Of a DNA stretch of 58,613 nucleotides, positions 13,010 through 15,305 are shown one piece after another. The position numbers and the translations under genes are program-made. The DNA comes from an uncultured Verrucomicrobiota bacterium (lineage in GTDB: Bacteria > Verrucomicrobiota > Kiritimatiellia > CAIKKV01 > CAITUY01), in contig CAZHRU010000004.1 of the NCBI GenBank assembly GCA_964535015.1, forward strand, positions 2,716 to 61,328. Direction: 5' to 3'. A model generated the notes under the pieces. The model saw nothing but the letters and a program-made list of their open reading frames with translations. It ran no database searches and was not told the origin of the DNA. The first letter of the stretch is position 1, and each line of letters starts with the position of its first letter.

Positions 13010-13591
13010 TCAACTCAACGAGGGCTCAGCGAATGCCTTTCGACCGTCCCATGACGAAAACATCTGACTGTGAAACGACAGATAGAACAGACCGGACTGC
13101 AGAATGCATCGCAACCCGATCGACTCCGCTTCTCCCAACGCCATGTGCAGCCTCACCAATAATCCACCCTCCTTGTCCTTGCGGGAGATCCCCACCAAAT
13201 GCCCGCCACGCTCCATATTCCGTGTAAACGATATCACGGTCACCGCTTTCTCACTCTCGTGATACAAACCGTTGCGCGCCCCGCCCGCCTTCTCTTGCCG
13301 CCCTTCCAAAACCGCCAGCAACTCGCAAATATCGGAAAACCCCAACTTGACCGTCATTTTACGCTCCCAGTCAAATGTCGCCGGATTCCTCTGCGCATCC
13401 TCCCGACTGGCCACCGTCTTCTGAGGAGCCATCTCAAGGTAGAAACAGTTGTGCCGATCGGATTCCATCCGGTTCACCCGTGGCTCCAACCGCAACGCAC
13501 TCCCGTCCCCTTTAGCCGTGGGGTGATAGAACGCCACCTTCTGATCTCTCAACCTGATTGCTCCTGTCTGATCCTTCACCGTCGCCGTCAT
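13010..13591 (-). CDS. Whirly-like putative single-stranded nucleic-acid-binding protein
   Basis: Colinear motif resemblance to plant Whirly domain (ALRLEPR, FYLEMAP, FDWERK..KL..SDICEL, LYH, GGHLVGIS, terminal helix); AAGGAG RBS before ATG 13591. Confidence 0.6.
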   Translation of the reverse strand: MTATVKDQTGAIRLRDQKVAFYHPTAKGDGSALRLEPRVNRMESDRHNCFYLEMAPQKTVASREDAQRNPATFDWERKMTVKLGFSDICELLAVLEGRQEKAGGARNGLYHESEKAVTVISFTRNMERGGHLVGISRKDKEGGLLVRLHMALGEAESIGLRCILQSGLFYLSFHSQMFSSWDGRKAFAEPSLS

Positions 13592-13762
13592 ATCGCTTCT
13601 CCTTTGTTTAAACACCACTTGTCACAGGACGCCTATCAACGCCTATGCCCCAATAAAGAAAACAGGATCCACCGTTTCCGAACGTTTTCTATTTACCTAA
13701 CCGCTATTATCGATTACTTATATTACTACATTCTTGCATGAAACCATTCAACTGAAAACACT

Positions 13763-14602
13763 ATGCCTGCTATCACTCACCTCGAAGACTGGAACACCTG
13801 GATCACCGTCTGCGCCCTGGACTTGTGCCCCGGCAATACCCGGCAGTCCCTGCAGCGGTTCGTACTCACCCGCTTTGTCTCCCTCGTCAGAAAATACGCC
13901 GCCTTGTCCCGCACCGACCCAGGTAATGCCGCCGCCAGCACCCCTGCCGAGGCCTGGCACCTCTTCGAAACCCACCTCCACATTCAACACACCCGCGAAG
14001 GCAAAACTTATAAGCAGTGGCTGAACGAGCATCGCTGGCTTAACCCCGAAGCCCCACTCCCCTGCCTCGAAAGCGGCGCATCCCTCCTCGTCCGCGACGT
14101 CGTAAGGGAACACCTGCGCCGCGAGGCTAGGCGCACATCCTCGCTACCGTTGGATACCCCGCTCCGCGGCGCCTGCGGCCAAACCTATACCCTCACCGAT
14201 TTGCTCCCCTCACCGGAAACCACGCACAATGCCATTCACAACAATGAACTGACCCGCCTGGCCTCGCATGCCGCCCAGCAGGCGTTCCAGCAACTGACGC
14301 GCCGCGAACGCCTCGCCCTGCTGGCGCGCAGCCTGAACCTGCCCCTCTCTTCGCCACTAGTCACCAAGGCGGCCGCCTGCCGCAAATCCTCCCTCTGCAC
14401 CGCCTACCGCGTCGGACTCAATACCATCGCCGCCTTCATCCAAAAACAGTTCGCTTCCGAAGACCGCTCCATCCGCGCACAACTGGCCGTCACCACCTTC
14501 TCCGAGTTGCGCCCCTTGCTGGTTCGCTGGGCAACATCGGAAAACCAACAACTTGTCTCCTTTATGAAGGAAAGCAACAACGATGAACTGGCCATCCGAT
14601 AA
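13763..14602 (+). CDS. Divergent sigma-70-like / HTH protein
   Basis: VRDVVREHLRRE (region 2-like), SLPLDTPL...TLTDLLP (region 3-like), QLTRRERLAL (region 4 start); atypical N-terminus. Confidence 0.5.
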   Translation: MPAITHLEDWNTWITVCALDLCPGNTRQSLQRFVLTRFVSLVRKYAALSRTDPGNAAASTPAEAWHLFETHLHIQHTREGKTYKQWLNEHRWLNPEAPLPCLESGASLLVRDVVREHLRREARRTSSLPLDTPLRGACGQTYTLTDLLPSPETTHNAIHNNELTRLASHAAQQAFQQLTRRERLALLARSLNLPLSSPLVTKAAACRKSSLCTAYRVGLNTIAAFIQKQFASEDRSIRAQLAVTTFSELRPLLVRWATSENQQLVSFMKESNNDELAIR

Positions 14603-15305
14603 ACATAACGCCCCCTTCCGAAAAAGACTCTGGCATTGGCTTCAGGAATGGGAAACCGACCTCCTCCTGCGACAGGCAACAAAACCCAACCAATCCGAAA
14701 CCTTCCCGCCCTCCGATGCAACCTCATCCGCACCCTGTGGTACAGACATTGCATGGAACCCAGGCGACATAGCTCTCCTCTATCCAACCCCGCCTAACCG
14801 CCCGATCTACACTCTGATTCTTGAATGTATGGACAATCGCACCTTCCTGATTTGCCCCTTCAGCCGCTTTGCGGAACCGGCCACTCCTGGCGAATGGATC
14901 ACAGGTAGTCAAACCATCCCGCTACGGGTGCTCTGCCTGTGGAATAGTCATGTGGCAGACTCAACCGTCCTTGGGCGGGGATGGCGCTCAGGTAGACTGA
15001 GCCAACCTCAACTGGTTTCCGCACTGGAATTGCATGACCACATGAACTCAGGCGCCCCGCTGGTGCTCGCGGATCCCTCCGACCTTGGCCCCCCGTTGAT
15101 CCACCCCGCCGACCCGCGCTGGCTCTACATGGAAGAGGAGTCCCGCCTCCTTGACGAGACCATGACAACCCTGGCTCACCGGCCTCACAAGCGGCAACTC
15201 AACGAAAACTGGATGACACCCCGGTCGTTCTGGCCTCTCGCAGCAGAACCACCCCCCACCTATTTCTCTGACAACAAACTCCCGGGAAATCCCGATCCAA
15301 TCTGA
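14583..15305 (+). CDS. Hypothetical protein overlapping the sigma-like gene
   Basis: 240-aa ORF, 20-bp overlap, AAGGA upstream; PGDIALL...NRPIYTLIL...FLICPFS and GPPL..DPR..YMEEE motifs. Confidence 0.65.
   Translation: MNWPSDKHNAPFRKRLWHWLQEWETDLLLRQATKPNQSETFPPSDATSSAPCGTDIAWNPGDIALLYPTPPNRPIYTLILECMDNRTFLICPFSRFAEPATPGEWITGSQTIPLRVLCLWNSHVADSTVLGRGWRSGRLSQPQLVSALELHDHMNSGAPLVLADPSDLGPPLIHPADPRWLYMEEESRLLDETMTTLAHRPHKRQLNENWMTPRSFWPLAAEPPPTYFSDNKLPGNPDPI

Follow-up and report, generated by a model that had tools for sequence, protein, structure and literature searches.

According to the accessible text of two reports, every domain of life has known examples of the Whirly/PC4-like superfold (PMC7549692, PMC13392464), and the Whirly family itself (Pfam PF08536; StWHY1/PBF-2 p24, StWHY2 and AtWHY1/2/3) is said to be specific or unique to plants in the accessible parts of several others (PMC9070903, PMC11712025, PMC11359715). 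The papers listed as naming PF08536, 10 of 11, are all plant studies. A first-pass annotation of the DNA considered here, a stretch of 58,613 nucleotides (the window) from an uncultured Verrucomicrobiota bacterium of the class Kiritimatiellia (assembly GCA_964535015.1, contig CAZHRU010000004.1, positions 2,716 to 61,328), started from the premise that Whirly proteins are treated as largely those of plant organelles, which this literature bears out, and proposed that a minus-strand gene at positions 13010–13591 encodes a full-length prokaryotic homologue. That proposal is upheld by profile comparisons, by the predicted fold and by a predicted tetramer. We consider it likely that the product of this gene, the window protein, is an authentic though much diverged prokaryotic representative of the Whirly/MRP branch of the PC4-like fold, a tetramer that would bind single-stranded DNA (ssDNA) and work beside the single-stranded DNA-binding protein (SSB) in ssDNA metabolism.

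Several described systems provide a frame for this gene. The MRP1/2 proteins of Trypanosoma brucei form a tetrameric whirligig, and in both StWHY2 and MRP1/2 single-stranded nucleic acid is bound on and between the β-sheets, as set out in the accessible text of one report (PMC7549692). For the plant proteins, the lysine of a conserved KGKAAL block is required for 24-mer assembly, according to the available part of another (PMC3245945). The same superfold is also found in the prokaryotic world, in ChmC of jumbo phages, in the N-terminal domains of Shedu type 1A and in the DUF1508 pair of NsnA (Menshen). In the accessible portions of the source reports, single-stranded nucleic acid binding has been proposed or demonstrated for these phage and defense domains, and ChmC is described as having ‘no identifiable sequence similarity’.

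The window protein resembles plant Whirly proteins in its predicted duplicated β4-α fold, in its co-linear sequence blocks, in the size of its folded core and in being predicted as a helix-mediated homotetramer. It differs from them in having only 15–20% identity to plant chains, a Pfam score that falls short of the cut-off, no transit peptide for an organelle, AKGDGSAL instead of a literal KGKAAL, and an extra hairpin at residues 62–69, and in being encoded on a bacterial chromosome by a gene whose family has ssb and sigma-like neighbors. It therefore falls outside the plant Whirly proteins in the strict sense, which are products of eukaryotic nuclear genes with organelle targeting, and it is assigned to a separate prokaryotic branch because the gene is bacterial, is preceded by a Shine-Dalgarno sequence and encodes an N-terminal extension of at most about 18 residues. 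MRP1/2 share the same fold subtype, but they form a mitochondrial RNA-binding heterotetramer, whereas the window protein is a predicted homotetramer and its gene context points to DNA. Homologues from Micrarchaeota are related to the window protein directly in sequence and, like it, are small and stand-alone, but they are shorter (146–154 residues) and far closer to the plant model (45–46 bits). The phage and defense domains were recognized by structure only, lack sequence similarity to Whirly, and in some cases are single dimerizing repeats or nuclease fusions, as far as the accessible reports describe them, whereas the window protein has detectable Whirly sequence homology and stands alone. 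Pur-alpha/PC4-like proteins (among them Borrelia Pur-alpha, YdbC and SP_0782) share the superfold and the general class of ligand but are clearly more distant by Z score and by template modeling (TM) score.

The gene and its product

The Whirly gene of the window has the following features, taken from the list of open reading frames (ORFs) with its translation or read from the sequence:

13010..13591, minus strand: Whirly-family coding sequence, 193 residues plus stop, with the ATG at 13591 and the stop codon at 13012–13010
13599..13604, minus strand: Shine-Dalgarno-like AAGGAG, separated from the ATG at 13591 by a 7-nt spacer

The positions that had been assigned to the gene coincide with this coding sequence, and all six motif strings quoted in support of the assignment are present in the minus-strand translation. 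An in-frame GTG at 13618 is a possible alternative upstream start, but the ATG at 13591 is preferred because AAGGAG (13604–13599) precedes it at the 7-nt spacing. The words AAAGGA and AAGGAG are also the most enriched ones 5′ of homologous genes, being found in 34 and 22, respectively, of the 77 regions, whereas shuffling gave at most 17. The fraction of G+C is 0.515 in the bin from 13200 to 13799, compared with 0.54–0.65 nearby, a difference that was judged unremarkable across the Whirly gene.

Predicted fold and assembly

An AlphaFold2 model of the window protein, built on an alignment of 47 sequences, has a mean predicted local distance difference test score (pLDDT) of 87.5 and a predicted TM score (pTM) of 0.79. 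It contains two tandem β4-α repeats in one chain, which is the type I PC4-like fold:

Residues 19–23, 31–38, 49–59 and 79–83 (strands) and 85–95 (helix): repeat 1
Residues 62–69: extra small hairpin within repeat 1
Residues 109–112, 116–124, 131–139 and 146–152 (strands) and 154–177 (helix): repeat 2

The duplicated topology, whose absence would have spoken against a Whirly protein, is thus present in the model. Structural comparison had also been proposed as a check, and it places plant Whirly chains first and MRP1/2 next. When the model was compared with the Protein Data Bank (PDB) by Foldseek, ranks 1–10, 12 and 13 were occupied by plant WHY1, WHY3, PBF-2 and WHY2 chains (E 1.7e-7 to 3.2e-6, TM 0.56–0.71); MRP1/2 followed the plant chains, and Pur-alpha appeared only at E ~6e-3 with TM 0.31–0.35. 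VIA-align gave the same picture, with Z 17.1–17.6 over 143–159 residues for seven plant Whirly entries (AtWHY2 17.6, the root mean square deviation (rmsd) being 2.2 Å over 143 residues; WHY1 17.6; WHY3 17.5; PBF-2 and StWhy2 17.2), Z 16.0–16.5 for MRP1/2, Z 8.2–9.0 for Pur-alpha repeats I–II, Z 4.7–4.9 for Borrelia Pur-alpha and values below 8 for other folds.

A prediction of the tetramer was another of the checks proposed, and a helix-mediated, whirligig-like homotetramer was indeed predicted. The four-copy assembly reached a score of 0.89, compared with 0.01 for the best of three controls, and of 30 proteins with solved structures that are pairs of one chain, 20 attained the mark used for this score, as did 1 of 23 with single-chain structures. 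The runs shared at least 64% of contacts, the partner pLDDT was at least 76, and the confident contacts run through helices 85–99 and 154–178. Because Whirly tetramers are themselves among the solved structures, this score may reflect likeness or memory and is not independent proof of assembly.

Sequence relationship to the Whirly family

The window protein belongs to a large family. A word-index search of ~5.8 billion clusters at 90% identity returned 183 homologues at E ≤1e-3, and an exhaustive search of representative clusters at 50% identity returned 403 at the same threshold, of which 104 were at E ≤1e-10. Among the 120 homologues listed, 11 carry a precomputed PF08536 match, and one relative cluster bears the Joint Genome Institute (JGI) name ‘Whirly transcription factor’. 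For the window protein alone, Whirly is the sole Pfam family listed even at E ≤10. When 47 aligned relatives were scanned one by one, 40 matched Whirly at E ≤1 (best 2.4e-7), and among 59 more distant cluster representatives 12 matched it at E ≤0.01 and 4 exceeded the 23-bit cut-off.

Three profiles were compared with the PDB, built from close relatives only (A1), from 78 sequences including the window protein (A2) and from 33 distant relatives (A4). With A2, eight PDB sequences were found at E ≤1 and all eight are Whirly or MRP1/2 proteins (StWhy2 1.6e-4, PBF-2 4.7e-3). With A4, the eight sequences found are again all Whirly or MRP proteins (StWhy2 6.9e-6, PBF-2 9.8e-6, WHY1 8.5e-4, MRP1 1.8e-3). 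In addition, proteins from Micrarchaeota match the family by tblastn as well as matching both the Pfam Whirly model and AtWHY2, and this transitive link supports Whirly membership. A statistically supported sequence relationship to known Whirly proteins is thus found by profiles, by 40 of 47 relatives and through the archaeal proteins.

Two other matches stand apart from this set. The top PDB match of A1 was an adiponectin construct (E 0.0084), which was rejected as a match to a short GERNGLY repeat. Pfam Coatomer_b_Cpla, the coatomer beta appendage platform, was matched by 14 of the 47 A1 relatives below its cut-off (best E 0.0052), through the F(D/E)WENK.TV...D stretch at about residues 64–93, and the archaeal proteins show the same match; this similarity is due either to chance or to a distant relationship between the folds.

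The first-pass annotation had claimed that the protein follows the plant Whirly domain motif by motif, on the basis of six motifs:

Residues 21–38 of the window protein: motif 1, FYHPTAKGDGSALRLEPR
Residues 49–56: motif 2, CFYLEMAP
Residues 73–92: motif 3, FDWERKMTVKLGFSDICELL
Residues 109–113: motif 4, LYHES
Residues 129–140: motif 5, GGHLVGISRKDK
Residues 148–171: motif 6, LHMALGEAESIGLRCILQSGLFYL

This claim holds for motifs 2–6, which are paired with the named plant blocks in alignments of family profiles with solved plant Whirly chains (CF..APQ, FDW..K..V.L, LYH/FFH, GG(H/Y)..S.K and the C-terminal helix). The LYH/FFH pairing is seen only in the alignment of A4 with PBF-2, and motif 1 is supported only by the ranges of the structural superpositions. 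A literal KGKAAL is absent from the window protein, which has AKGDGSAL at residues 26–33 where the family consensus is G.GSAL; a second-position lysine is not apparent in this unaligned stretch. As judged by sequence comparison, the motif resemblance is above chance.

Distribution of the family

Relatives are encoded at 77 loci in species-representative genomes, of which 74 are bacterial metagenome-assembled genomes and three are Micrarchaeota archaea. The bacterial loci carry the labels Kiritimatiellia, Verrucomicrobiota, Lentisphaerae or PVC group, many have no label more specific than ‘bacterium’, and one is labeled Neomarinimicrobiota. Of 201 genomes sampled from the class of the source organism, 65 have a match at E ≤1e-5 (47 of the 157 that are of high quality), and these represent 41 of 102 genera; all but one of the 65 have a single match. 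Across the phylum, 29 of 301 sampled genomes have a match and all 29 belong to this class; the other classes in that sample have none. Because it is present in 65 of 201 genomes of the class and in none from the other sampled classes, the gene is best described as a patchy accessory gene of one class rather than a core gene. When a profile of distant relatives was used as the query, 140 proteins were retrieved; all are unnamed, and none is evidently eukaryotic.

The archaeal relatives are 28–29% identical to the window protein (tblastn 2e-9 to 3e-8). Two of them score 46.4 and 45.1 bits on the Pfam Whirly model, above its cut-off, and match AtWHY2 directly at E 1.1e-3; the cut-off is passed in 18 of 151 sampled genomes of the Micrarchaeota phylum. 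Their positions are as follows:

Locus L075, 3737–4198, plus strand: stand-alone Micrarchaeota Whirly homologue
Locus L077, 4995–5432, plus strand: stand-alone Micrarchaeota Whirly homologue
Loci L076 and L080–L083: further Micrarchaeota homologues, the set being 146–154 residues long

This distribution bears on the possibility that the resemblance is due to chance, to eukaryotic contamination or to a very recent plant transfer into the metagenome bin. In favor of these explanations, the source genome is an assembly of 205 contigs at 87% completeness, and the Pfam score of the single sequence falls short of the cut-off. These explanations are practically excluded by the 183 homologues and 403 representative clusters, by the presence of the gene in 65 of the 201 genomes sampled from the class, across 41 of its 102 sampled genera, by an identity to plant chains of only 15–20%, by a fold match at Z ~17, and by the bacterial ribosome-binding site, housekeeping neighbors and ordinary G+C content of the gene.

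Viral and other collections were also searched. In BFVD, seven predicted phage structures match the AlphaFold2 model at E ≤1e-3; the best (E 3.1e-6) is A0A6J5NR37 from an uncultured Caudovirales phage, annotated as ‘Whirly transcription factor’, and others come from Acinetobacter and Bacillus phages. A pattern search of IMG/VR viral contigs with A1 gave 52 pattern matches and no relatives. No match for the window Whirly protein was found in PADLOC, PHROGs or NCBIfam, and no longer or fused Whirly forms were found among 1770 candidates, which is weak evidence.

Gene neighborhood and the link to ssb

The Whirly gene of the window lies among chromosomal housekeeping genes. It is preceded, in window order, by genes for a dihydrouridine synthase (dus), ribosomal protein L28, a coiled-coil protein and mnmA, and is followed by unkA, unkB and genes for a BrkB/cyclic nucleotide monophosphate-binding membrane protein, an isopropylmalate-type dehydrogenase (leuB) and an aspartate-semialdehyde dehydrogenase (asd). 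The features next to it are:

13592..13762, no strand: divergent intergenic region of 171 bp between the Whirly gene and unkA
13763..14602, plus strand: unkA, 279 residues, an all-helical, two-domain protein whose model resembles a sigma-70-family (ECF-like) fold, identified from synteny and the model
14583..15305, plus strand: unkB, 240 residues, of unknown family, overlapping the end of unkA by 20 nt

The divergent region presumably holds the promoters of both the Whirly gene and unkA; a search for the sigma-70 consensus returned no promoter-like site between 12800 and 13800. The word GCCGTTCT, found upstream of 10 of 77 homologues, was considered as a promoter and rejected, since it is the ...PF-stop end of an upstream ssb gene.

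When all flanking ORFs of 78 loci (the 77 related loci and the window) were clustered, the neighbor directly upstream on the same strand was found to be an ssb cluster (~156 residues) in 24 loci, with a median gap of ~98 nt. The cluster representative is a canonical SSB (PF00436, 118.7 bits), and most of the upstream SSB copies end in an acidic ...PF tip. Sixteen loci contain ssb, the Whirly gene and unkA together. At 4 of the 78 loci the upstream position of ssb is taken by a PD-(D/E)XK nuclease (PDDEXK_3, 132 bits), as at locus L047 (4443–4895, plus strand). In many relatives a canonical ssb immediately precedes the Whirly gene in the same orientation, so that the Whirly protein most likely works in ssDNA metabolism, and the neighborhood points to ssDNA rather than RNA hairpins as the ligand.

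The main rival explanation is that the protein is an RNA-binding chaperone or annealer of the MRP1/2 or ChmC kind that acts on transcripts and not on ssDNA. MRP1/2 chains align with the model almost as well as plant Whirly chains do (Z 16.0–16.5 versus 17.1–17.6), the RNA-binding MRP family of Pfam is matched by 5 of the 47 aligned relatives (best 2.2e-4), the phage Whirly-fold protein ChmC prefers RNA in the accessible text of its report (10.1101/2023.09.22.559000), and the tRNA-modification genes dus and mnmA are nearby in the window. However, matches to the Whirly model far outnumber those to MRP (40 versus 5 of 47), tblastn found neither dus nor mnmA in any of the 77 related loci, and the recurrent neighbor, at 24 of 78 loci, is the DNA-metabolism gene ssb. 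We therefore regard an RNA role as unlikely, and ssDNA as the more probable ligand.

The neighboring unkA–unkB pair

Two uncharacterized genes also recur beside the Whirly gene, unkA at 34 of 77 loci and unkB at 33 of 77. Three arrangements occur: they are divergent from the Whirly gene or, on its strand, lie downstream or upstream of it. Whirly and unkA are present together in 48 of the 201 genomes sampled from the class, Whirly alone in 17, unkA alone in 40 and neither in 96, so that unkA is present in 88; the two genes are at most 5 kb apart in 34 of the 48 genomes that have both. The two unk genes are constant partners that overlap, in the window as well as at loci L084–L103. In 20 genomes with unkA and no Whirly gene, unkB follows unkA in all 20 and the pair is beside ssb in 7. 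Because of this placement in genomes that lack Whirly, unkA and unkB are viewed as an independent pair that tracks ssb rather than Whirly, and they look like an uncharacterized conserved ssb-associated pair in their own right.

Neither protein has a match in Pfam, NCBIfam, PADLOC, PHROGs or the PDB by sequence or profile, and unkB finds only unnamed clusters in the ESM Atlas. Its family has two highly conserved blocks, PFGRxAxPAxPGEW and GPPLxHPADPRHxY. The unkA model is all-helical with two domains (pLDDT 87.3, pTM 0.49). Foldseek found nothing at E ≤1e-3 for this model, and its list is mostly sigma factors (best 6.6e-3). Sigma factors or RNA polymerase–sigma complexes, judged by entry title, make up 48 of the top 50 VIA rows, at Z 5.8–7.6, which is below the level of 8 that is safe for helical proteins. 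Residues ~160–240 fit sigma region 4 with an rmsd of 1.9–2.2 Å over 61–72 residues (Z 6.0–7.0), and hhalign against eight extracytoplasmic function (ECF) sigma factors of the same genome aligned regions 2.4 to 4 in one co-linear stretch of 103 columns, with a probability of 37.6% and E 3.4e-4. None of 29 unkA members matches a sigma Pfam family at E ≤1, so regions 2 and 4 are not recognized by these sequence models. Because such a match is missing and the hhalign probability is only 37.6%, unkA is called sigma-like and not a sigma factor, a description toward which we lean. Its N-terminus carries a W..W...CA..LC motif (residues 10–22, ~13790–13828) in which W10, W13 and C22 are invariant and C17 is nearly so; the two conserved cysteines may be a redox- or metal-sensing element.

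Alternatively, the window protein could act mainly in transcription or in the nucleoid together with the sigma-like unkA, for example by holding melted promoter DNA or compacting DNA, and not as a repair or recombination partner of SSB. That unkA adjoins the gene at 34 and unkB at 33 of the 77 loci, in all three arrangements, and that both do so in the window, is consistent with such a role, as are the sigma-70-family fold of unkA in the model (48 of 50 VIA rows, region 4) and its hhalign match to ECF sigma factors; PBF-2, moreover, was first described as a transcriptional regulator, as the title of PDB entry 1l3a indicates. The sigma assignment is weak, however, for the reasons given above (Z below 8, Foldseek 6.6e-3, hhalign 37.6% and no Pfam or PDB sequence match), each gene also occurs without the other (of 65 genomes with Whirly, 17 are without unkA, and a further 40 have unkA but no Whirly), and the presence of unkA–unkB beside ssb in 7 of 20 Whirly-less genomes indicates that the pair tracks ssb. 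We rate this transcriptional role as quite improbable.

Proposed function

The function that we favor is in ssDNA metabolism beside SSB. Four chains would join through helices 85–99 and 154–178 into a whirligig-like homotetramer, as in the predicted assembly. Taking plant WHY2 and MRP1/2 of T. brucei as a guide, we infer that the outward-facing β-sheets of this tetramer would bind single-stranded nucleic acid largely regardless of its sequence. Beside SSB, the protein would then protect or organize ssDNA during repair, recombination or replication stress, and the unkA–unkB pair may, more speculatively, regulate or cooperate with the ssb and Whirly genes.

Several observations weigh against this proposal. 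Scored alone against PF08536, the window protein reaches only E 0.11 and 12.7 bits, compared with a cut-off of 23, and only over residues 42–98; the Pfam Whirly model matched nothing at E ≤10 when the source genome was scanned in all six frames; a single-sequence phmmer search of the PDB found no Whirly chain and only a ribosomal S16 chain (E 0.35); and profile A1 reached StWhy2 at just E 0.5. The pairing of motif 1 (residues 21–38) with the plant KGKAAL block lies outside the printed alignments, with superpositions starting at model residues 11–14, and the lysine of the plant 24-mer has no evident counterpart in AKGDGSAL. The structural evidence for the window protein is all predicted. RNA is a possible ligand, because 5 of 47 relatives match the RNA-binding MRP family. 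With respect to gene context, 54 of the 78 loci are without an upstream ssb, and in the source genome ssb is not adjacent to the Whirly gene in the window, the two SSB-family matches above cut-off being on other contigs:

Contig C14, 11983–12294: SSB-family match (L078)
Contig C26, 26960–27268: SSB-family match (L079)

Lastly, unkA is missing from 17 of the 65 Whirly-positive genomes, and the co-occurrence of the two genes is given as raw genome counts in which kinship is ignored.

The comparison with the Whirly profile by HMMER, which had been suggested as a check, consequently gives a divided answer, since it fails for the single sequence (12.7 versus 23 bits) and succeeds at the family level (40 of 47 relatives and profiles A2 and A4). 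The gathering score is an operational and not a biological criterion. Because the single sequence falls short of it, an automatic pipeline would miss the window protein, and its assignment to Whirly therefore rests on the profile and fold evidence.

A broader proposal would place this protein in a hitherto undescribed ssDNA-handling set of the Kiritimatiellia, consisting of the sigma-like protein, its constant partner unkB, SSB and a tetrameric Whirly protein that serves as a second single-strand binder in cooperation with SSB, and would derive plant organelle Whirly proteins and kinetoplastid MRP1/2 from a prokaryotic Whirly that was PVC-bacterial, DPANN-archaeal or phage-borne, rather than from an innovation of plants. 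We consider this proposal possible, though doubtful.

Significance

Searches of the open literature, outside subscription journals and supplementary files, found no report of a free-standing bacterial Whirly homologue and none that joins ‘Whirly’ with ‘Kiritimatiell’, and the top-ranked papers for Whirly in Micrarchaeota or DPANN do not contain the word ‘Whirly’. Databases already tag some relatives automatically, through PF08536, the JGI name and the BFVD phage protein. The window protein therefore represents an undescribed prokaryotic Whirly branch with a new and informative gene context, and not a new kind of system.

The supposedly plant-specific Whirly family is also found in bacteria and archaea, being common in one class and present in DPANN, which is a moderate surprise for plant Whirly specialists and makes the origin of the family testable. 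This prokaryotic branch, which is repeatedly wired to ssb, gives the family an evolutionary context that can be tested by phylogeny. In addition, unkA, with its sigma-like model, and unkB are two uncharacterized conserved genes that travel with ssb in the class. The branch also offers a simpler experimental system for learning what a Whirly tetramer adds to SSB.

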